DNA of 64,000 nt from a phage, in the NCBI GenBank assembly GCA_011915565.1, contig GCA_011915565.1_3920.1, one strand, 5' to 3'. Below the pieces are notes generated by a model, which worked only from the letters and a program-made list of their open reading frames with translations, was not told where the DNA came from and ran no database searches. A program made the position numbers and the translations under genes. How positions within the stretch are numbered: position 1 is the stretch's first letter; each line of letters begins with the position of its first letter. Below, one piece after another: positions 8,309-49,368 of the stretch.

Positions 8309-9378
8309 TTAACCAACACCCAATCTTTTTAGGTGGTGAGAGAAAGACATTTGACTCACTTAATAAACACTACCCAAAAATCTTTGAGCTATATAAACAA
8401 CAAAAAGCGCAAGACTGGTCAGAAGATGAGTTTCCTTTTGAACAATCACGTCTTGATTTTGAGAGTGTGCCAGCATCAATGTCAGGTGTAATGCTTGAGA
8501 TTCTTAAGTGGCAGTGGGAAGCAGATACCCAAGTTGCTAAGAGCTTGGCATTCGCCTTTGCACCATTCATCTCTGATGACATCTATGCAACTGCAATTAT
8601 GAAGCAGTCTGAGATTGAAAACCTACATGCTCTTACTTACTCAGAGATTGTAAGGCAATGTATTAAAAACCCTGAAACAATCTTAGATGAGATTAACCAG
8701 AATGTTGCTGTGCAAGACCGATTAAAAACCGTGAATCGTGTTCTTGAAGAATTACTGGATGAAGGTATAAACTATCGCCTGAGTTATGTCCGTGATTCAC
8801 TTCTGGACAAAGACCCTTTACACTTCCATAAAGCGATTCTGAAAGGGCTGTTTGCAGTGACTGCACTTGAAGGTATATCTTTTATGGCATCCTTTGCATG
8901 TACTTTTGCACTTGATGCTCAAGATAAATTTCAGGGTATTGCTCAAGCTGTCCAGAAAATTATGCTTGACGAAATCCTTCACACTAAAATTGATATTGAA
9001 GTTTTAAAAGAAACTTTAAGAGATGATGAGTGGCAGAAAGCTTTTCAACAAATTCTTCCAGAGATTAAAGTAATCTTAGATGAAGTAGTTGAAAGTGAAG
9101 AGAAATGGTCGTATTATATCTTCTCCGAAGGACGTGCTGTAGTTGGCTTAAATACAAAGCTTCTTCATGAGTGGGTTTACTATAATGCTGCCCCACTGTA
9201 TGATATGTTTGGCATTCCCAGAGATTTTGTAGCTCCTAAAGAACCACCTTTGAAGTATATGATTAAGAAGATGGAAATTGATAAAGAGCAGAATGCTAAT
9301 CAGGAGCAACAGAACGGTGCGTACCTGTTGAATACTGTTGTAGATGATTTGAATAGTGGATTTTTAGAGGTTCCTTAA
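8305..9378 (+). CDS. nrdB: ribonucleotide reductase class I small subunit
   Basis: Listed ORF starts 8245; in-frame ATG at 8305 with AAAGGAGAAA RBS; size and position after nrdA fit R2 subunit. Confidence 0.75.
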   Translation: MINQHPIFLGGERKTFDSLNKHYPKIFELYKQQKAQDWSEDEFPFEQSRLDFESVPASMSGVMLEILKWQWEADTQVAKSLAFAFAPFISDDIYATAIMKQSEIENLHALTYSEIVRQCIKNPETILDEINQNVAVQDRLKTVNRVLEELLDEGINYRLSYVRDSLLDKDPLHFHKAILKGLFAVTALEGISFMASFACTFALDAQDKFQGIAQAVQKIMLDEILHTKIDIEVLKETLRDDEWQKAFQQILPEIKVILDEVVESEEKWSYYIFSEGRAVVGLNTKLLHEWVYYNAAPLYDMFGIPRDFVAPKEPPLKYMIKKMEIDKEQNANQEQQNGAYLLNTVVDDLNSGFLEVP

Positions 9379-43983: not shown

Positions 43984-44002
43984 AAAGTTTTAAAAAGGGT
44001 AT

Positions 44003-44031
44003 TGACAATGTGTTTAATACCCTTTAATATG
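44003..44031 (+). promoter_or_regulatory. sigma70-like promoter (TTGACA-17-TAATAT) with overlapping inverted repeat
   Basis: GGGTATT...AATACCC palindrome spans the -35 and spacer; heads the tRNA array. Confidence 0.55.
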
Positions 44032-44148
44032 TTCTACATAGAAACGAGATGAGGGCTTTTCTAAGATACTGAAAAATATTTTAAAAAAGTTCTTGACAAC
44101 CACTAAAAAATAATGTTAAAGTGGTTACATAGAGTTTGAAAAGTTTAT

Positions 44149-44225
44149 CTCTGTTTAGCTCAGCTTGGTAGAGCGTTCCGTTTGGGGCGGTAAGGCCGGA
44201 GGTTCAAGTCCTCCAACAGAGACCA
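44149..44225 (+). tRNA. tRNA-Pro (anticodon TGG)
   Basis: Manual cloverleaf: acceptor CTCTGTT/AACAGAG, GGTTCAAGTCC T-arm, CCA encoded. Confidence 0.7.
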
Positions 44226-44232
44226 AATTAAT

Positions 44233-44310
44233 GTTCCAGTAGACAAAATGGTAAAGTCACCACTCTTTCAAAGTGGATATCTGAGGGTTCAAATCCCTTC
44301 TGGAACGCCA
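44233..44310 (+). tRNA. tRNA-Glu (anticodon TTC)
   Basis: Acceptor GTTCCAG/CTGGAAC; anticodon stem CCACT/AGTGG, loop CTTTCAA; CCA encoded. Confidence 0.7.
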
Positions 44311-44315
44311 GTTTT

Positions 44316-44392
44316 GACAGAAGACCAATTACAGCAAACTTAATCTTATTCATCTGAAGGTAAATCGGACAAAGAAGAGATTTGGTCTGGTC
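44316..44392 (+). other. tRNA-spacer structured element, copy 1 (CAGAAGACC...GGTCTGG)
   Basis: Conserved CAGAAGACCAATTACAGCAA head and TTGGTCTGG tail forming a 7-bp closing stem. Confidence 0.5.
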
Positions 44393-44401
44393 ATTAAGAA
44401 T

Positions 44402-44478
44402 TGCGGGTATAGAGAAAGGGTGTCTCACATGTCTCATTAGCATGGTATCGGCAGGTTCGACTCCTGCACCCGCCTCCA
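44402..44478 (+). tRNA. tRNA-Met (anticodon CAT)
   Basis: D-stem GAGA/TCTC, anticodon loop CTCATTA, T-arm GCAGG-TTCGACT-CCTGC, CCA encoded. Confidence 0.65.
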
Positions 44479-44480
44479 AA

Positions 44481-44550
44481 TTTACAGAAGACCGTTTACA
44501 GCAATACTTATTAAATTTTTAGCGGAAAAATTGAAAGATACGGTCTGGTA
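44481..44550 (+). other. tRNA-spacer structured element, copy 2
   Basis: TTTACAGAAGACCGTTTACAGCAA...ACGGTCTGG. Confidence 0.5.
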
Positions 44551-44561
44551 ATACTAAACAT

Positions 44562-44638
44562 GGTTAGGAAGCACATAAGGTATGTGCGGTCGCCTGTTAA
44601 GCGAATGGCACAGGGTTCGAATCCCTGACTAACCGCCA
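44562..44638 (+). tRNA. tRNA-Asn (anticodon GTT)
   Basis: Acceptor GGTTAGG/ACTAACC; anticodon loop CTGTTAA; T-arm CAGGG-TTCGAAT-CCCTG. Confidence 0.65.
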
Positions 44639-44646
44639 AATTAAAT

Positions 44647-44734
44647 GTGTCGTTATCCCGTAGATGGTAGCGGTGGGGACTGTAAATCCCTTGTCATTGA
44701 GACTCGGTAGGTTCGACTCCTACACGGCACACCA
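44647..44734 (+). tRNA. tRNA-Tyr (anticodon GTA), long variable arm
   Basis: 88 nt; anticodon stem-loop GGGGA-CTGTAAA-TCCCT; type II structure. Confidence 0.65.
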
Positions 44735-44739
44735 ATAAA

Positions 44740-44816
44740 GGCTATGTAGTTTAACTGGAGAAAATACTCCCCTGTCACGGGAGATGATGTGAGTTCAAGT
44801 CTCATCGTAGCCGCCA
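44740..44816 (+). tRNA. tRNA-Asp (anticodon GTC)
   Basis: Acceptor GGCTATG/CGTAGCC; anticodon stem CTCCC/GGGAG, loop CTGTCAC. Confidence 0.7.
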
Positions 44817-44875
44817 ATTTTGAGAGGGCTATTTAGTTCCTCCCTTAAAGAGTTCTTACGAGTATTCTTTAAAGG

Positions 44876-44952
44876 AGCAGAAGACCAAATACAGCAAGAA
44901 TGTATGAAATTTCAAGCCAATTTAATTTTGAAAATTTAAAACTTGGTCTGGC
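44876..44952 (+). other. tRNA-spacer structured element, copy 3
   Basis: GCAGAAGACCAAATACAGCAA...CTTGGTCTGG. Confidence 0.5.
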
Positions 44953-44963
44953 TCAACAAATTT

Positions 44964-45098
44964 ACAGAAGACCGTTTACAGCAAAACTTAAACAATCTAT
45001 TTCTCCGGTAAAGAAAAGGCGAAGGTTCGATTCCTTCACTCGGCAGATGTCGAGTTGGTGTAATGGTAGCACTTAAGATGATAAACAACGGTCTGGTA
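44964..45098 (+). other. tRNA-spacer structured element, copy 4, containing a degenerate tRNA-like segment
   Basis: TTTACAGAAGACCGTTTACAGCAA head; T-arm-like GAAGG-TTCGATT-CCTTC, hairpin ACTCGGCA/TGTCGAGT, D-arm-like TGGTGTAATGGTAGCAC, then ACGGTCTGG. Confidence 0.45.
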
Positions 45099-45239
45099 AT
45101 TATCTTTGTAGATAAGTTATTAAGCTTACCTGTGAGTATGCGACCACAAAGGGTGAAGGGTAAATTCTAGATTTAAACCCAAAAGGCACATCGCTACAGA
45201 CCTTAAGCAAGTCTGGGTAGCTTATCTACAAAGATAATT
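45098..45239 (+). other. perfect 19-bp inverted repeat enclosing 104 nt
   Basis: AATTATCTTTGTAGATAAG at 45098-45116 and its exact reverse complement at 45221-45239; lies between spacer element 4 and tRNA-Lys. Confidence 0.6.
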
Positions 45240-45243
45240 TAAT

Positions 45244-45319
45244 GGAAGTGTAGCAGAATGGTGATGCGGCAGACTTTTAATCTGACAGGCGATGGGTTCG
45301 AATCCCTCCACTTCTACCA
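45244..45319 (+). tRNA. tRNA-Lys (anticodon TTT)
   Basis: Anticodon loop CTTTTAA; T-arm ATGGG-TTCGAAT-CCCTC; paralog of the 46541 tRNA. Confidence 0.6.
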
Positions 45320-45397
45320 AATTCACCCTTAACTGAGAAACACCTGCGCGGCTGGAAACACCCACTCAACAGTTTCTCTAACTAGGGTACTTATTCT

Positions 45398-45474
45398 GGT
45401 TCAGTCGCAGATAAGGTAATGCAAGGGTCTCATAAGCCCTATGAATGTGGGTTCGATTCCCATCTGAACCTCCA
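45398..45474 (+). tRNA. tRNA with CAT anticodon (Met or lysidine-Ile)
   Basis: Acceptor GGTTCAG/CTGAACC; anticodon stem AGGGT/GCCCT, loop CTCATAA. Confidence 0.6.
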
Positions 45475-45475
45475 A

Positions 45476-45551
45476 GCTGGTATAGTTAAGAAGGTTATAA
45501 CACTCCCCTGATAAGGGAACATCGGTGGTTCGATTCCACCTACCAGTACCA
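45476..45551 (+). tRNA. tRNA-Ile (anticodon GAT)
   Basis: Acceptor GCTGGTA/TACCAGT; anticodon loop CTGATAA. Confidence 0.65.
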
Positions 45552-45566
45552 ATTTCAATAAAGTTG

Positions 45567-45595
45567 TTGACATTGAGATGTGACTCCTTTATACT
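45567..45595 (+). promoter_or_regulatory. sigma70-like promoter (TTGACA-17-TATACT)
   Basis: Inside the tRNA array, upstream of a 200-nt hairpin-rich spacer and tRNA-Arg. Confidence 0.55.
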
Positions 45596-45797
45596 AACCT
45601 TAGTTTTCGTTGCGTAGCGTCTATTTTGCAAATTTAAAATAAATGCAAACGACAATGTTTTTCTGGCAGTAGCTTGATAGGCTAAACACCAGTGAGGTCT
45701 TCCAATCCCTCATCAAAGAATTTGGCGTACTCGCCCACGGTATGATTAATAAGGTGGGCATCTTTAAGGGCTTTCTAAGAGAGTCTTTAAAGATAAT

Positions 45798-45874
45798 GCA
45801 CCCTTAGTTCAATTGGATAGAGCAACGGTCTTCTAAATCGTTAGTTACAGGTTCGAATCCTGTAGGGTGTACCA
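45798..45874 (+). tRNA. tRNA-Arg (anticodon TCT)
   Basis: Acceptor GCACCCT/AGGGTGT; D-arm GTTC...GAGC; anticodon loop CTTCTAA. Confidence 0.7.
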
Positions 45875-46016
45875 AATAGTTAGCAGATTACTTAGACGGC
45901 CTTAGCGGGTCTTCCTGTAGGGAGGTGGTCTGTATCTCATGTTTTCCAGAACATGTAAATAATCTGAGAAGAAGCTTGACAGTGTTGAGATAACAGGGTA
46001 AGCTTCGAATTATAAT

Positions 46017-46099
46017 ATGGGACGATGTTAAGACTCTAAGGCATGAGCAACGGCCTCCAAAACCGTTTCAAAGGGGTTCAACTCCTCCGTCCCATGCCA
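46017..46099 (+). tRNA. tRNA-Trp (anticodon CCA)
   Basis: Acceptor ATGGGAC/GTCCCAT; anticodon loop CTCCAAA; 83 nt with enlarged D region; preceded by TATAAT. Confidence 0.55.
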
Positions 46100-46112
46100 A
46101 AGTCTTATTAGG

Positions 46113-46200
46113 GGTAGGTAGCGGCTAATGGCAGCCAAACAGTCTTGAAAACTGTTGCCACTGTAGAGATACGGTGAGGGTTCGACTCCTTTACTTACCG
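46113..46200 (+). tRNA. tRNA-Ser (anticodon TGA), long variable arm
   Basis: Anticodon stem ACAGT/ACTGT, loop CTTGAAA; type II; no CCA encoded. Confidence 0.6.
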
Positions 46201-46376
46201 CCTAATAAGATTTACTCCGTCCATGCTTGTTCGCATTGTCGGTTTATCCCTCGTGTATTGTCGTACACTGTCAAAGCACCTAGTAGGTGTCACGGAGAAG
46301 AGATAATATCAAGCTCTCCAAAGGTTCTAGTCACCGGATTAAACAAGACTATGCAAAGACCTATTTAGGTCTTTTT
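46201..46376 (+). ncRNA. candidate structured non-coding RNA ending in an intrinsic terminator
   Basis: No ORF; long-range complementarity (ACTCCGTCC ... GTCACGGAGAAG); ends with AGACC-TATTT-AGGTCT plus TTTTT at 46355-46376. Confidence 0.4.
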
Positions 46377-46456
46377 AGAGGGCTTCTAAGGTTATTAGTC
46401 GCTTGTTGTGGAACCTTGTTGCTCAGGTTCTTAGAAGTTCTCTAAAAAGATTTAAT

Positions 46457-46533
46457 GCACCTATAGCCCAACTGGTAGAGGCAGCAGACTTAGAATCTGC
46501 TCAGTGTGAGTTCGAATCTCTCTAGGTGTACCA
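46457..46533 (+). tRNA. tRNA with TAG anticodon (Leu by anticodon; short variable arm)
   Basis: Acceptor GCACCTA/TAGGTGT; anticodon stem GCAGA/TCTGC, loop CTTAGAA; 77 nt, type I. Confidence 0.55.
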
Positions 46534-46540
46534 AATTAAT

Positions 46541-46616
46541 GCAGGTGTAGCAAAATGGTTATGCGGCTGACTCTTAATCAGTAAGACGATGGGTTCAATT
46601 CCCTCCACCTGTACCA
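46541..46616 (+). tRNA. tRNA-Lys (anticodon CTT)
   Basis: Paralog of the 45244 tRNA; anticodon loop CTCTTAA. Confidence 0.55.
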
Positions 46617-46622
46617 AACAAT

Positions 46623-46698
46623 GGGGTCATAGTTTATATGGTTAAAATTCGAGTTTTGCAAACTTGGGAACCGAGTTCAATTCTCGGTGACTCCACCA
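46623..46698 (+). tRNA. tRNA-Ala (anticodon TGC)
   Basis: Clean 76-nt cloverleaf: GGGGTCA acceptor, GTTT/AAAT D-stem, loop TTTGCAA, T-arm CCGAG-TTCAATT-CTCGG. Confidence 0.7.
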
Positions 46699-46704
46699 AT
46701 TAGT

Positions 46705-46779
46705 GCATCCATAGTTTAAACGGGAAAATTACAGTCTTCCAAACTGAGGTTGAGGGTTCGATTCCCTCTGGATGCTCCA
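46705..46779 (+). tRNA. tRNA-Gly (anticodon TCC)
   Basis: Acceptor GCATCCA/TGGATGC; anticodon loop CTTCCAA. Confidence 0.65.
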
Positions 46780-46786
46780 AATTAAT

Positions 46787-46862
46787 GCTCCTATCGTATA
46801 ATTGGTTATTACGGTTGCCTTGTAAGCAACTTATCAGGGTTCGAGTCCTTGTGGGAGCACCA
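46787..46862 (+). tRNA. tRNA-Thr (anticodon TGT)
   Basis: Anticodon stem GTTGC/GCAAC perfect, loop CTTGTAA; T-arm CAGGG-TTCGAGT-CCTTG. Confidence 0.7.
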
Positions 46863-46892
46863 ATTCAGAGGTCAAGTGAAAGACCGCTTTGA

Positions 46893-46950
46893 GTCAACTG
46901 AAGACCGTAACAAATTCCACGGAGTTGAGTTAGCGGCACAACTCCAGACC
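46893..46950 (+). other. tRNA-spacer structured element, diverged copy 5
   Basis: CTGAAGACCGTAACAAATTCC related to the CAGAAGACC head; enclosed by AGAGGTC/GACCTCT inverted repeat. Confidence 0.4.
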
Positions 46951-46958
46951 TCTTTCAT

Positions 46959-47033
46959 ACTCGCTTAGTTTATATGGTAAAACATCACCCTTACAAGATG
47001 AAGAAAAAGGTTCAAGTCCTTTAGTGAGTACCA
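46959..47033 (+). tRNA. tRNA-Val (anticodon TAC)
   Basis: D-stem GTTT/AAAC; anticodon loop CTTACAA; T-arm AAAGG-TTCAAGT-CCTTT. Confidence 0.65.
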
Positions 47034-47034
47034 T

Positions 47035-47112
47035 GTTCCAGTATCCCAATTGGCAGAGGATGCAAGCTCAAACCTTGTATTAGTGACGGTTCGAATCCGT
47101 CTTGGAACACCA
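47035..47112 (+). tRNA. tRNA with CAA anticodon (Leu by anticodon; short variable arm)
   Basis: Acceptor GTTCCAG/TTGGAAC; anticodon stem GCAAG/CTTGT, loop CTCAAAC; T-arm GACGG-TTCGAAT-CCGTC. Confidence 0.55.
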
Positions 47113-47117
47113 ATTTT

Positions 47118-47193
47118 GCAGGATTAGTTCAAATGGAAAGAGCAACAGTCTACGAAGCTGTTAATAGGGGTTCGAATCCCTTATCCTGCGCCA
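47118..47193 (+). tRNA. tRNA-Arg (anticodon ACG)
   Basis: Clean 76-nt cloverleaf; anticodon stem ACAGT/GCTGT, loop CTACGAA. Confidence 0.7.
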
Positions 47194-47210
47194 GATAAAA
47201 AGGTGATACT

Positions 47211-47453
47211 ATGCAAACATTAACAGTAGTTGAACATGAAAACTGTGAGAGTATTGAGTTTGTCAGGGTCATTGGTGTTGAACACCACATTTTCTTAAAA
47301 GTTGGATACTTATGTGACCCCGCTAGAGTAGAAAGATTTATACGTGATTGTTTTGGTGGTAGACATCTGAAGAGTGTTATTTTTGAGACAGTTTTACCAG
47401 AAGGTTTAGAAACGAATAATAACATTTACCTCCTTACGAGGATTAGACAATGA
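47211..47453 (+). CDS. hypothetical protein embedded in tRNA array
   Basis: 80 aa; AAGGTGA RBS 6 nt upstream; directly follows tRNA-Arg. Confidence 0.5.
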   Translation: MQTLTVVEHENCESIEFVRVIGVEHHIFLKVGYLCDPARVERFIRDCFGGRHLKSVIFETVLPEGLETNNNIYLLTRIRQ

Positions 47454-48007
47454 GATACTTAAAGTATGCTTCATGGATTTTCTTAGCTTTGTTAGAGCCA
47501 TTTGCAGCAATCTTAGCAGTTATCTTAGCACCTTTTGTAGTTCCATTCTACAGTGAGAAGAAAGGACACTTACCTTTCGGGTTCAGATGGATGGAGACTT
47601 ATGACAACCCAATTGATGGTGATGCAGGTCATATCAAACGATGGGCTAAGATTAGAAAGATTGGTAAGCTTGGTGTCTACATGCAGAGAGTTGGATGGCT
47701 CTGGAGAAACAAAGCTTATAACTTCTCTTACCATGTGTTAGGAAGAGATGTAAAAGACGTTACTAAGTGGAAAGGTAATATCAACGTAAGTTCTAACCCT
47801 GAAGATAATCAGACAGGTTATCTCCTAATGTGGAACAGTAATGCTTGGGGATTATTCGCTTTTATCCCATCAATTAAAATCTTTGGTAAACAATTCTACT
47901 GGAGAATTTATGTTGGATGGAAACTTAAAAGTGTTGTCCCAGAAGAAAGAGCATTCTCAAGGGAAAGAGTTATGTTGGCATTCTTTATTCATCCACTAAG
48001 AAAGTAA
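47450..48007 (+). CDS. membrane protein embedded in tRNA array
   Basis: 185 aa; N-terminal TM segment WIFLALLEPFAAILAVILAPFVVPF; start overlaps upstream stop (ATGA). Confidence 0.6.
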   Translation: MRYLKYASWIFLALLEPFAAILAVILAPFVVPFYSEKKGHLPFGFRWMETYDNPIDGDAGHIKRWAKIRKIGKLGVYMQRVGWLWRNKAYNFSYHVLGRDVKDVTKWKGNINVSSNPEDNQTGYLLMWNSNAWGLFAFIPSIKIFGKQFYWRIYVGWKLKSVVPEERAFSRERVMLAFFIHPLRK

Positions 48008-48015
48008 AGATTTAA

Positions 48016-48091
48016 AGGGGATTAGTTTACAAGGTTAAAACCTCGGTCTTTGAAATCGAAGAAGTTGGTTCAATTCCAACATCCCCCGCCA
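48016..48091 (+). tRNA. tRNA-Gln (anticodon TTG)
   Basis: Anticodon loop CTTTGAA; T-arm GTTGG-TTCAATT-CCAAC; unpaired 1:72 and G73. Confidence 0.65.
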
Positions 48092-48093
48092 AT

Positions 48094-48172
48094 GCTCCAT
48101 TACTCCAATTGGCAGAGAGGCCAGACTTAAAATCTGTGTTATGTATCGGTTCGAATCCGATATGGAGTACCA
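48094..48172 (+). tRNA. tRNA with TAA anticodon (Leu by anticodon; short variable arm)
   Basis: Acceptor GCTCCAT/ATGGAGT; anticodon loop CTTAAAA; D-loop AATTGGCAGA shared with the 47035 tRNA. Confidence 0.5.
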
Positions 48173-48177
48173 AATTT

Positions 48178-48253
48178 AGCGGTATAGCATAACTGGCAAT
48201 GCAGCAGCCTCTGAAGCTGTCCTATTAAGGTTCAAATCCTTATGCCGCTGCCA
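48178..48253 (+). tRNA. tRNA-Gln (anticodon CTG)
   Basis: Acceptor AGCGGTA/TGCCGCT; anticodon stem GCAGC/GCTGT, loop CTCTGAA; G73. Confidence 0.6.
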
Positions 48254-48284
48254 CTTCTAAGGATTCTTACGAGAGTCCTTAAAT

Positions 48285-48360
48285 GTGGCCTTATCATAAA
48301 TGGTAATGACCCATGCTGTGAACATGGTCTATACGGGTTCAAATCCCGTAGGTCACCCCA
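48285..48360 (+). tRNA. tRNA-His (anticodon GTG)
   Basis: Anticodon stem CCATG/CATGG perfect, loop CTGTGAA; discriminator C. Confidence 0.7.
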
Positions 48361-48366
48361 ATTTAT

Positions 48367-48442
48367 AGTCCAAGTAGCTTATATGGTTAAAGCGCGTGTC
48401 TGAAAAACATGAGAAGAGGGTTCAAATCCCACTGGACTACCA
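48367..48442 (+). tRNA. tRNA-Phe (anticodon GAA)
   Basis: Anticodon stem CGTGT/ACATG, loop CTGAAAA; T-loop TTCAAAT; CCA encoded. Confidence 0.6.
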
Positions 48443-48458
48443 ATTTCAAAGGTGCTTA

Positions 48459-49193
48459 ATGAAAGAGATGACAGAACAAGGTAAGGAGATTTTCAATCTC
48501 TTAAAAACCGGTAAAGGGTTTTCTAACCCCCTTATTACTGGTGCAGCAGTTCTCGGTGGAACCGTAGCTGCCTCTACATCACTTGTAAGCTCTATTAGCT
48601 CTGTATCAGACCCTACAGTAAAGGATAAGCTTGTTGCTGCTGGACTTACAACAGTTCTGCTTAACAGCTTTACCACGAGTCTGACAAGCACTACATCAAC
48701 TACCAAAACACTAACAGATTACGGTCAAAAGTCCATTGATGAGTTTTCATCACGTATGCAGGTAGCAAAAGGTTACTCTAATGTTATGGGTGCAGCAGGT
48801 GAACAAGTTGGCTGTACACCATTTAGTGGTATTATGGGTGTTGCTACAGAGTATGGTCAAAAAGCTATTGATACGATTAACAGTGCACTAGATAGTGTTA
48901 ATGGTGTGTTAAGTGACTTACAAGATGCTATTGACAAAGGTCTTGATACTATTTCTGATTTAGCTGAGCAAGCTGTTAGTAAGATTAATGAAGGTATTTC
49001 AAAAATTACAGCTTATGCAGATGAAGTTGTGCAGATGATTGAAGAAGAAGCTGCTCTTATTGCAGAGTACCTTAAAACGAATATCAATGGGTTCTTAGCA
49101 GGTATCTTACCAGACTGGTTTGATGATGCTTGTAAAACTGGTGTAATTGACACTATTGCAACACCAGAAATGAAGAACGCATTACAGAAATAA
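48459..49193 (+). CDS. hypothetical protein (Ser/Thr-rich N-terminus, helical C-terminus)
   Basis: Track ORF starts at 48396 inside tRNA-Phe; first ATG after the tRNA (48459) with AAAGGTG RBS chosen. Confidence 0.55.
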   Translation: MKEMTEQGKEIFNLLKTGKGFSNPLITGAAVLGGTVAASTSLVSSISSVSDPTVKDKLVAAGLTTVLLNSFTTSLTSTTSTTKTLTDYGQKSIDEFSSRMQVAKGYSNVMGAAGEQVGCTPFSGIMGVATEYGQKAIDTINSALDSVNGVLSDLQDAIDKGLDTISDLAEQAVSKINEGISKITAYADEVVQMIEEEAALIAEYLKTNINGFLAGILPDWFDDACKTGVIDTIATPEMKNALQK

Positions 49194-49195
49194 AT

Positions 49196-49288
49196 GGAAG
49201 ATTAACCCTAAAAGGTAAGGGAGCAGTTTGCTAAACTGCCAGTAGCTGAGAAATCGGTGTACCAGTTCAAGTCTGGTATCTTCCTCCA
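49196..49288 (+). tRNA. tRNA-Ser (anticodon GCT), long variable arm
   Basis: Acceptor GGAAGAT/ATCTTCC; anticodon stem GCAGT/ACTGC, loop TTGCTAA; T-arm TACCAG-TTCAAGT-CTGGTA. Confidence 0.65.
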
Positions 49289-49292
49289 ATTT

Positions 49293-49368
49293 GAATCCGT
49301 GACAGAAACGGCTATGTGCCTGTCTGCAAAACAGGTTTATAAGGGTTCGAGTCCCTTCGGATTCTCCA
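49293..49368 (+). tRNA. tRNA-Cys (anticodon GCA)
   Basis: Acceptor GAATCCG/CGGATTC; anticodon stem CCTGT/ACAGG, loop CTGCAAA. Confidence 0.7.

Follow-up and report, generated by a model that had tools for sequence, protein, structure and literature searches.

A stable-RNA island in a Felixounavirus: tRNA genes that probably supplement the host pool, with candidate small RNA genes between them

What does a phage gain from a set of tRNA genes that spans nearly all amino acids, and what lies between those genes? Both questions are raised by a 64,000-nt stretch of phage DNA (GenBank assembly GCA_011915565.1, contig GCA_011915565.1_3920.1; hereafter, the window), in which 27 tRNA or tRNA-like genes are clustered on one strand. 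A first-pass annotation, made from the letters of the window, had counted 27 tRNA genes covering all 20 amino acids and had read this set as a sign of strong translational autonomy. Our analysis indicates that the interval is the tRNA island of a Felixounavirus, composed of 26 canonical genes and one Trp-like gene, and that it would probably supplement the host tRNA pool for the codons that the phage favors. About 1.3 kb of the apparent gaps in the array, which the first pass had missed, is made up of other structured RNA genes. The transcription units that carry the tRNAs would also carry four Y-RNA-like genes, an RNA resembling the messenger part of transfer-messenger RNA (tmRNA), and a large hairpin RNA. 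For this reason, we prefer to call the locus a stable-RNA island rather than a pure tRNA array. Its interest lies between the tRNA genes, where several undescribed small RNA genes deserve a study of their own.

Composition and codon coverage of the tRNA array

ARAGORN identified 26 tRNA genes on the plus strand between 44149 and 49368, all of which agreed with the first-pass list in start, end, and anticodon. The gathering score of the Rfam tRNA model (RF00005) was passed by 24 genes, with E-values from 1e-11 to 0.016. The other two, CAT-1 (at 44402) and tRNA-Tyr (at 44647), were called by ARAGORN only and fell below the Rfam gathering score; their equivalents are low-scoring or marked "pseudo" in the published Felix O1 table. 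The 27th locus, listed as tRNA-Trp with the anticodon CCA, was called by neither ARAGORN nor the Rfam tRNA model. The predictor-accepted genes cover 19 amino acids, and the claim that all 20 are represented by anticodon hangs on this non-canonical Trp-like gene. The 3′ CCA is encoded in 26 of the 27 genes (the exception is tRNA-Ser with the anticodon TGA), in line with the earlier remark that most genes encode it. We accept the array observation for 26 genes and regard the 27th as open to argument.

Comparison with known genomes likewise bore out the phage origin of the window and the identities of its tRNAs. The 5.5-kb interval is 98.7% identical over its whole length to Escherichia phage vB_EcoM-Pr103Blw (MW481326), whose record contains 26 annotated tRNAs identical in type and order to the 26 in the window, and typing phage 1, wV8, and numerous other phages match it at 97-99% identity. 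At least 80% of the region is covered in 233 phage records, and the tRNA gene order is common to 30 related loci. By its sequence, the window is assigned to Felixounavirus, that is, to the Felix O1-like virulent myoviruses of E. coli and Salmonella. The arrays published for Felix O1, wV8, and Pr103Blw contain 22, 23, and 26 tRNAs, respectively, and that of Felix O1 was presented with a discussion of codon usage (Whichard et al.). These clusters represent the same locus, as judged from the 97-99% identity, the equal gene order and anticodons, and the same flanking genes (a Ro60-like gene upstream and a terminase gene downstream). We found no substantial difference between them and the window; the odd genes (Tyr, His, CAT-2, and the Trp-like gene) have been accepted variably by annotation software. 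Because the array has been published for these three phages, the finding as reported in the first pass is already known, and the array is annotated in hundreds of Felixounavirus genomes. As such, it is a textbook case of a tRNA-rich virulent phage and adds nothing new. The published annotations also lay small open reading frames (ORFs), some on the opposite strand, over the structured RNAs; four minus-strand ORFs of wV8 that run across tRNA or RNA genes (gp048, gp050, gp053, and gp054) were taken as spurious. A practical side of the present analysis is that such spurious ORFs cover these RNAs in current annotations.

Clustered tRNA genes transcribed by the host polymerase are also found in the virulent coliphages T4 and T5. 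In T4, whose cluster has eight tRNAs including a long-armed tRNA-Leu, small stable RNAs with no assigned role (species 1 and 2) lie among the tRNA genes, and in T5 homing endonuclease genes do so; we know of no Ro60-like gene in T4 or T5. The window resembles both in that its tRNA genes are interspersed with other genes, and the variable slot around tRNA-Ile and tRNA-Ser accommodates an HNH endonuclease gene in wV8 and in Maleficent, in the latter after the tRNA-Ser gene. Unlike T4, the window has 26-27 tRNAs, and all of its Leu tRNAs are short-armed.

Codon coverage was calculated for 78 non-overlapping heuristic ORFs of the window (39.0% G+C) and the 25 distinct anticodons of the array. Strict wobble rules allowed 44 sense codons to be read, corresponding to 76% of phage codon usage, and cmo5U-type wobble raised this to 50 codons and 90-92%; neither rule set lets the array decode all 61 sense codons unaided by the host. 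Under the rules applied, no phage decoder was found for GGT, GGC, CGG, or the NNC codons of the four-fold boxes, and GGT is the commonest Gly codon (41 per 1000). The claim of strong translational autonomy was thus overstated. Full autonomy, in which a complete decoding set would free the phage from host tRNAs, strikes us as very improbable. All 20 amino acids would be represented by anticodon if the Trp-like gene works, but that gene is non-canonical, 8-24% of codon usage is left undecoded, and charging would be wholly by host synthetases, since the array holds no synthetase or elongation factor gene. The wobble analysis contradicts full autonomy unless an unmodified-U34 "superwobble" acts in every four-fold box.

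What the array does match is phage codon usage, the other possibility raised in the first pass. Relative to a 42-gene sample of E. coli K-12, the cognate codons are enriched in the phage (mean log2 +0.48, as against -0.39 for the other codons; Mann-Whitney p = 0.03). AGA is used 14.4 times per 1000 codons in the phage and 1.2 times in the E. coli sample, a 12-fold difference; the corresponding values are 21.8 and 5.4 for ACA, 18.2 and 5.2 for TCA, and 16.8 and 8.7 for CCA. These last three codons, together with CTA and TTA, are 2-4-fold more frequent in the phage. The pattern favors codon supply, which Whichard et al. had argued for Felix O1. The tRNAs suit the codons of the phage, yet they do not confer autonomy.

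In the scheme that we propose, host RNA polymerase would produce polycistronic precursors from promoters at 44002 and 44093, with a restart at 45567, and host RNase P and 3′ trimming enzymes would release tRNAs that, with the one exception given above, already carry CCA. Host aminoacyl-tRNA synthetases would then charge them, as their discriminator bases and other identity marks follow the E. coli rules. The added tRNAs would raise the supply of decoders for A/U-ending and AGA-type codons, which are much more frequent in this phage (39% G+C) than in its host, and the phage set would act as a supplement to the host pool and not as an autonomous decoding set.

Several points weigh against such a supplement. 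The codons GGT, GCT, GTT, ACT, and TCT are the commonest in their boxes and have no directly cognate phage tRNA, as has been noted for Felix O1. The codon test is modestly significant, and it compares 78 heuristic ORFs with a 42-gene host sample. The predictors reject the Trp-like gene, tRNA-His has T rather than G at position -1, and both CAT tRNAs (U73) as well as the CAT-1 anticodon loop (U37) depart from the host identity rules. A further point comes from phage Bas63, which we take to be a Felixounavirus. On four laboratory strains, the tRNA genes of this phage were mostly dispensable (PhageMaP preprint); therefore, the tRNAs are not generally rate-limiting.

Dispensability on K-12-type hosts would also fit a conditional role in counter-defense, in which the array replaces host tRNAs hit by anticodon nucleases or tRNA toxins (PrrC, RloC, colicin E5/D-type, VapC, or retron-linked) or resists their cleavage. 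We regard this role as possible but unlikely. The classical targets of these nucleases are tRNA-Lys (UUU), the Tyr, His, Asn, and Asp tRNAs (GUN), tRNA-Arg (ACG), and a Met-CAU species, and the phage set includes them. The membership of the array varies among close relatives, as expected of arms-race cargo (Arg TCT is present in 18 of 32 loci, and Trp occurs in two forms or is absent), and U37 is an unusual anticodon-loop feature of CAT-1 and of Erwinia phage CAT tRNAs. The hypothesis has been published and is plausible, and the neighboring Ro60-like gene (gp130) counters the "ppl" defense system in Bas63 (PhageMaP preprint). On the other hand, 13 of the 25 distinct anticodons have U34, and this bias toward A-ending codons is predicted by codon supply but not by the list of nuclease targets. 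Nothing in the sequence demonstrates resistance, and the anticodon loop of phage tRNA-Lys (CTTTTAA, anticodon TTT) is the same as that of E. coli tRNA-Lys.

Less likely still is a role in maintaining the tRNA pool after host shut-off, in which the phage, having stopped host transcription and degraded host nucleic acids, resupplies all isoacceptor families whatever their codon bias. That host degradation drives tRNA acquisition is an idea known from the literature. Coverage of 19 or 20 of the 20 amino acids goes beyond the needs of codon compensation, and both Gln, both Lys, and the Phe, Cys, and His tRNAs serve codons with little or no enrichment. The array nevertheless leaves GGT, GGC, CGG, and NNC codons uncovered, so that host tRNAs must persist and function throughout infection. 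We retain supply of phage-favored codons as the probable role of the array.

Unusual tRNA genes and the Trp-like gene

Discriminator bases follow the E. coli rules, which we took from an identity review and general knowledge, in most genes: C73 in His; U73 in Cys and Gly; G73 in Gln, Asn, Asp, and Glu; and A73 in Leu. The Leu genes are unusual in another respect. None of the three in the window has a class II long variable arm, and all of the Leu tRNAs in 31 related loci, including that of an Erwinia phage, are 77-79 nt long with a variable region of 5-7 nt. Long arms are retained in the Ser (89-93 nt) and Tyr (83-88 nt) tRNAs of the same loci. The phage tRNA-Leu genes have a 3-bp D stem and an 11-nt D loop with G18G19 in addition to A73, as in E. 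coli leuW. According to the identity review, tRNA-Leu is long-armed in all organisms save animal mitochondria, E. coli leucyl-tRNA synthetase does not need the arm, and the elements that it uses are A73 and the Leu-type D arm.

The T at position -1 of tRNA-His replaces G-1, the main identity element of E. coli histidyl-tRNA synthetase. The homologue in the Erwinia phage has G at this position, and the tRNA-His gene is labeled "tRNA-OTHER" and a pseudogene in the RefSeq record of wV8. For the two CAT genes, comparison with E. coli metZ, metT, and ileX leaves Met, formyl-Met, and lysidine-Ile all as candidate identities. CAT-1 has initiator-like marks (a 1·72 mismatch, G2:C71, C3:G70, and A11:U24). 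It does not have the GGG/CCC anticodon stem, and it carries U37 where tRNAs that read ANN codons normally carry a modified A; U37 recurs in two of the three CAT tRNAs of the Erwinia phage. Together with this unusual His gene and the Trp-like gene described next, the short-armed Leu tRNAs amount to natural experiments on the identity rules of the E. coli synthetases.

The Trp-like gene was matched best by the Rfam tRNA-Sec model, at 23 bits and an E-value of 0.41. It is 83 nt long, and its acceptor helix of 8 bp (ATGGGACG/CGTCCCAT) is extended by G73 and CCA. Its anticodon arm has a 5-bp stem (AACGG/CCGTT) around C-CTCCAAA-A, giving a 7-nt loop with the anticodon CCA that is closed by a C31·A39 mismatch, and its 4-bp T stem with a normal T loop gives an acceptor/T stack of 8 + 4 bp. 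The departures from a canonical tRNA lie in the D region, where about 7 extra nt lengthen the spacing between the acceptor and the anticodon stem to about 25 nt, from the usual 19 or so, and where the D loop has no GG. The gene carries A1-U72, G73, and the anticodon CCA, which together constitute the E. coli Trp identity set (identity review).

Comparison among relatives showed that these helices are maintained. In Maleficent (Mooglevirus), the anticodon stem is GTAAG/CTTAC, with four of the five pairs changed on both sides, and at related locus L025 a G-C pair of the T stem is replaced by U-A. Over six distinct sequences, pairing is seen in 99% of the alignment cells in the helices, as against 35-55% in slid controls, and double changes affect five pairs. 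An extended 7-bp anticodon stem with a bulge was also considered and rejected, as it is broken by the Maleficent variant, which retains the 5-bp stem. A shorter Trp-like gene with the same C31·A39 mismatch, likewise missed by ARAGORN, is found at approximately 9000-9085 of locus L044, from a 48%-distant phage. Among the window and the 31 related loci, no Trp-like gene was seen at this site in 8 of the 32 sequences. These features lead us to regard the Trp-like gene as under selection and probably functional, though non-canonical.

The Ro60-fold protein and the Y-RNA-like genes

The gene directly upstream of the array encodes a protein that falls outside Pfam TROVE, matching DUF2828 and DUF7788 only, and a sequence search against PDB chains gave no match; its relationship to Ro60 is visible by fold comparison only. 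An AlphaFold (AF2) model built with 46 homologues had a predicted local distance difference test (pLDDT) value of 89. The top 11 Foldseek matches in the PDB were all Ro60/TROVE proteins, including Xenopus Ro60, Deinococcus Rsr, and Ro60 of Thermus phage phiLo, over the full length with E-values of 1e-7 to 3e-6 and template modeling (TM) scores of 0.5-0.66. The residues of the metal ion-dependent adhesion site (MIDAS) in the vWA domain (D279, S281, S283, T349, and D381; DxSxS...T...D) are invariant. The protein is thus predicted to adopt the Ro60 fold, a HEAT-repeat TROVE ring joined to a vWA domain with a MIDAS.

Four Y-RNA-like genes, Y1 to Y4, follow 330-1100 nt downstream of the Ro60-like gene on the same strand. 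They share a design in which a 4-bp outer stem, an AGAA/TG internal loop, and an inner stem (GACCNN/NNGGTC) precede the motif WWCAGCAA. Among 29 distinct copies from 31 genomes, 99.3% of the alignment cells in the helices pair and five pairs show double changes, as against 17-49% in slid controls; the outer stem occurs as TGAC/GTCA, TTAC/GTAA, TTGC/GCAA, and GAGC/GCTC. In Y4, the modules of a full tRNA cloverleaf are present in permuted order inside the Y-type helix: an anticodon-arm-like hairpin, a T arm (GAAGGTTCGATTCCTTC, 45020-45036), a loop-closed acceptor stem, and a D arm. The closed acceptor stem exists in three fully compensated versions, ACTCGGC/GTCGAGT in the window and ACCCTTC/GAAGGGT and ACACGT/GCGTGT in relatives, and independent folds of the three Y4 versions gave the same architecture. 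The tRNA model aligned part of Y4 with 22 bits.

Related elements were also detected beside distant homologues of the protein gene, in 75 IMG/VR loci (L044-L118) whose DUF2828 protein is 38-48% identical to that of the window. The exact Felixounavirus helix motif (AGAAGACC...GGTCTG) had essentially no matches in these loci; to bring out the family, the stem had to be generalized, with CAGCAA...TG retained. The pattern scanned for was a 6-nt stem, 3 nt, CAGCAA, and, further on, the complementary stem followed by TG. With this pattern, the gene strand gave 66 elements, against 4 for the opposite strand and none in shuffles; when the letters of CAGCAA were rearranged, the 59 other motifs averaged 4 matches, with at most 9. 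At least one element is present in 39 of the 75 loci, 47 of the 62 non-genic elements lie within 700 nt of the gene, and the stem sequence varies from locus to locus. A T-loop motif occurs in 10 of the distant elements. Several long distant members weakly match the Rfam model of YrlA, a Salmonella Y RNA (RF02553), over its whole length, with E-values down to about 1e-7 and scores of 24.7-38.9 bits, all below the gathering score of 69. The window Y4 gave no match to YrlA, even in a 181-nt search; the order of modules in the YrlA consensus is that of Y4. Erwinia phage Tian, of the same subfamily, has neither the protein gene nor the Y-like RNAs. A tRNA gene was found within 5 kb in 27 of the 75 distant loci, some of which have 10-22; the association of this protein with tRNA clusters is therefore by no means confined to Felixounavirus.

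The closest known systems are those of bacterial Ro60 (Rsr) with YrlA and YrlB in Salmonella and Deinococcus (Chen et al. 2014; PMC4201824). They share with the phage locus a ring-shaped TROVE plus vWA fold, several small RNA genes on the same strand within about 1 kb, and RNAs whose 5′ and 3′ ends pair in a closing helix and whose internal loop is conserved. As in YrlA, one RNA of each locus has a tRNA-like module, which runs from a T arm through a loop-closed acceptor stem to a D arm. The phage locus differs in that its protein is filed under DUF2828/DUF7788 and not under TROVE, in that the presumed protein-binding module is 5′-AAAG-stem-WWCAGCAA ... stem-CTG-3′ rather than GNCGAAN0-1G, and in that the Y-like genes are embedded in a tRNA operon. 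Chen et al. searched only TROVE-annotated phages and described a different protein-binding motif. The PhageMaP preprint, which places the Ro60-like gp130 of Bas63 upstream of tRNA genes, offers only the guess that "some tRNA genes" could in fact be Y RNAs, and a literature search for "DUF2828" returned no paper among the matches listed. Most likely, Y1-Y4 are the partners of the Ro60-fold protein encoded just upstream, to which we infer that they bind. If so, this is directly testable in a tractable E. coli phage whose protein already has a defense-related phenotype.

An alternative is that the Y-like elements, together with the tmRNA-like and hairpin elements described below, are spacers, processing signals, or decayed tRNA or tmRNA fragments without a function of their own. 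The failure of Rfam YrlA to match the window Y4 would fit this, whereas the covariation of the Y helices, the three compensated acceptor stems, and the recurrence of the motif family on the gene strand beside homologous genes argue against it. We judge it improbable.

The tmRNA-like RNA and other elements of the island

Downstream of the strongest promoter of the region (45567) lies an element that resembles the messenger domain of tmRNA (SsrA) without its tRNA-like domain. It contains AAAAUAAAU followed by GCA AAC GAC AAU GUU UUU CUG GCA GUA GCU UGA UAG, which would encode ANDNVFLAVA and two stops. As in tmRNA, the sequence 5′ of the resume codon and the start of the tag fit the consensus (AAAAUAAAU and GCAAACGAC, respectively), the 10-codon tag AN(D/E)xxxL(A/M)(V/A)A resembles ANDENYALAA of E. 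coli, and a helix-5-like hairpin, followed by further covarying hairpins, presents the stop codons in its loop. In Rfam, both tmRNA models align to this stretch through their tag regions, and the posterior probability is high. The scores (12-15.7 bits for RF00023 and 14.6-28.1 bits for RF04321) are far below the gathering score of 47, as the element lacks the tRNA-like domain and most of the pseudoknots. Unlike tmRNA, the phage element is only about 160 nt long and has no acceptor stem, T arm, or CCA end; without a tRNA-like domain it cannot take alanine, and therefore classical trans-translation is not expected.

Other readings of the element were rejected. ARAGORN found no tmRNA in the window or in three other phages. 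A "permuted tmRNA" match in Rfam (45493-45677, 28 bits) was considered as a two-piece tmRNA, but its acceptor part is the 3′ half and T arm of the normal tRNA-Ile. Nowhere in the 64-kb window did a search detect a T-loop piece that ends in NCCA and could pair with the 5′ end of the element. The tag frame has no in-frame start codon that would make it a conventional ORF, and the ATG frame that overlaps it shows no conservation.

Altogether, 628 phage records contain the element, near tRNA genes and almost never annotated; in wV8, the minus-strand ORF gp050 is annotated over it. The records are from Ounavirinae with Erwinia phages, Ackermannviridae, an N4-like member of Schitoviridae, and approximately 47-kb siphoviruses of Klebsiella, Salmonella, and E. 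coli, and the element spans at least five unrelated phage lineages. Among the loci that we compared, it occurs at 4955-5083 of L004 (Erwinia phage Tian), in L036-L038, and in L119-L121. Across nine genera, the tag frame is always 10 codons long, AN(D/E)xx(F/Y/I/V)L(A/M)(V/A)A plus a stop, with synonymous changes (GCA/GCT, AAC/AAT, GAC/GAT, and GTA/GTG), and both the stop-codon hairpin and the next hairpin covary. The element could compete for tmRNA-binding factors, or it could be one half of a two-piece molecule with an unrecognized partner; both are possibilities. A tmRNA-like messenger without a tRNA domain, kept by many enterobacterial phages, is unexplained and touches on ribosome rescue. 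A literature search found no paper that describes such an element.

In Cba120 (L037), the 2.1-kb unannotated gap that holds the tmRNA-like element also holds T-arm-bearing tRNA-like sequences, at approximately 1210-1320, 1690-1735, and 1830-1870. One of these has a 7-bp acceptor pairing (GACGAGG/CCTCGTC), and ARAGORN calls none of them.

A further candidate RNA gene is a 138-nt hairpin just upstream of tRNA-Lys (TTT). Its minimum free energy is -46.4 kcal/mol (z = -5.5), and none of 200 shuffles was as stable. The hairpin is kept in the genus as two sequence classes with compensatory changes and a common core, ATTCTAGATT; in wV8, the minus-strand ORF gp048 is annotated across this area.

For the tmRNA-like element, too, the absence of the domain needed for trans-translation would suit a decayed fragment, and the 10-codon frame kept with synonymous changes across nine genera speaks against one. 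Neither the Y-like nor the tmRNA-like family is in Rfam 15 above threshold or in the literature searched. On balance, it seems to us an evenly poised proposition that the locus is a stable-RNA island with two kinds of undescribed members. One would be a phage Y-RNA family, some with a permuted tRNA-like domain, that partners widespread DUF2828 Ro60-like proteins; the other would be a tmRNA-like messenger, found in more than 600 genomes, that encodes an SsrA-like tag and could interfere with or hijack host ribosome rescue.

Table 1. Features of the window in and around the tRNA array, in order of position
Feature	Coordinates	Strand	Evidence and remarks
Predicted Ro60-fold RNA-binding protein gene, 471 aa	42568-43983	+	Pfam DUF2828 and DUF7788; PHROG 850 "RNA-binding protein"; directly upstream of array
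Sigma-70-like promoter, TTGACA-17-TAATAT	44002-44030	+	10/12 consensus match
Sigma-70-like promoter, TTGACA-18-TAAAGT, extended TG	44093-44122	+	10/12 match
tRNA-Pro TGG	44149-44225	+	ARAGORN; Rfam 57.7 bits
tRNA-Glu TTC	44233-44310	+	ARAGORN; Rfam 60.4 bits
Y-RNA-like gene Y1	44315-44393	+	Terminal helix TGAC..GACCAA/TTGGTC..GTCA; motif CAGCAA
tRNA CAT-1	44402-44478	+	ARAGORN; below Rfam gathering; compared with E. coli metZ/metT/ileX
Y-RNA-like gene Y2	44482-44551	+	
tRNA-Asn GTT	44562-44638	+	ARAGORN; Rfam 48 bits
tRNA-Tyr GTA, 88 nt, long variable arm	44647-44734	+	ARAGORN; below Rfam gathering; "pseudo" in Felix O1/wV8 annotation
tRNA-Asp GTC	44740-44816	+	ARAGORN; Rfam 60.6 bits
Y-RNA-like gene Y3	44875-44954	+	
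Y-RNA-like gene Y4	44962-45099	+	Circularly permuted tRNA-like domain
Strongly structured RNA, 138 nt	45100-45237	+	22-bp terminal stem
tRNA-Lys TTT	45244-45319	+	ARAGORN; Rfam 54.4 bits
tRNA CAT-2, elongator-type, Met or lysidine-Ile	45398-45474	+	ARAGORN; Rfam 55.6 bits
tRNA-Ile GAT	45476-45551	+	ARAGORN; Rfam 62.3 bits
Sigma-70-like promoter, TTGACA-17-TATACT	45567-45595	+	Best of region, 11/12 match; kept in most relatives
tmRNA messenger-domain-like RNA without tRNA-like domain	45602-45760	+	Tag frame 45645-45674 (ANDNVFLAVA), stops 45675-45680
13-bp hairpin just 5′ of tRNA-Arg	45762-45792	+	Read from sequence
tRNA-Arg TCT	45798-45874	+	ARAGORN; Rfam 64.1 bits; in 18/32 related loci
Non-canonical tRNA-Trp-like gene CCA	46017-46099	+	Covariation, fold; not ARAGORN/Rfam
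tRNA-Ser TGA, no encoded CCA	46113-46202	+	ARAGORN; Rfam 31.1 bits
Terminator-like hairpin then T run	46355-46376	+	Sequence; kept in relatives; absent from terminator scan list
tRNA-Leu TAG, 77 nt, short variable arm	46457-46533	+	ARAGORN; Rfam 57.3 bits
tRNA-Lys CTT	46541-46616	+	ARAGORN; Rfam 56.9 bits
tRNA-Ala TGC	46623-46698	+	ARAGORN; Rfam 57 bits
tRNA-Gly TCC	46705-46779	+	ARAGORN; Rfam 59.6 bits
tRNA-Thr TGT	46787-46862	+	ARAGORN; Rfam 59.5 bits
tRNA-Val TAC	46959-47033	+	ARAGORN; Rfam 60 bits
tRNA-Leu CAA, 78 nt, short variable arm	47035-47112	+	ARAGORN; Rfam 44 bits
tRNA-Arg ACG	47118-47193	+	ARAGORN; Rfam 59.5 bits
Two array-internal protein genes, 80 aa (PHROG 14202) and 185 aa (DUF7338)	47211-48007	+	Pfam, PHROG
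tRNA-Gln TTG	48016-48091	+	ARAGORN; Rfam 56.6 bits
tRNA-Leu TAA, 79 nt, short variable arm	48094-48172	+	ARAGORN; Rfam 47.5 bits
tRNA-Gln CTG	48178-48253	+	ARAGORN; Rfam 59.3 bits
tRNA-His GTG, C73, T at -1	48285-48360	+	ARAGORN; Rfam 53.3 bits
tRNA-Phe GAA	48367-48442	+	ARAGORN; Rfam 45 bits
Array-internal protein gene, DUF7217	48396-49193	+	Pfam, PHROG
tRNA-Ser GCT	49196-49288	+	ARAGORN; Rfam 46.2 bits
tRNA-Cys GCA	49293-49368	+	ARAGORN; Rfam 56.3 bits

The remaining features of the island concern its transcription and its variable part (Table 1). The first-pass annotation had placed promoters at 44003 (here 44002) and 45567 and a terminator at 46355-46376, and had suggested several transcription units. 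Both promoters are good sigma-70 consensus matches, and promoter-like sites before the array (44002 and 44093) and within it (45567) agree with several units; the regional total of 14 sigma-70-like matches is not above the 12.7 expected from shuffles. The terminator has a plausible stem and a T run and is kept in relatives, but the terminator scan did not report it.

The slot between tRNA-Ile and tRNA-Ser (45560-46110) varies among the relatives compared (L002, 3052-3951; L003, 5133-6332; and L005). It holds Arg-TCT and the 83-nt Trp-like gene in the window, and in wV8-type genomes a different Trp gene of 71 nt together with the HNH endonuclease gene; in DaR-2019a it has neither Arg-TCT nor a Trp-like gene.

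The 13-bp hairpin just upstream of tRNA-Arg (TCT) is a possible processing site. It belongs to a set of look-alike imperfect hairpins of the CTTTAAGG...TCTTACGAGA...CCTTAAAG type that stand directly 5′ of tRNA or Y-RNA genes, at approximately 44840-44875, 45762-45792, 46377-46456, and 48255-48283, and that may act as processing or attenuation signals.

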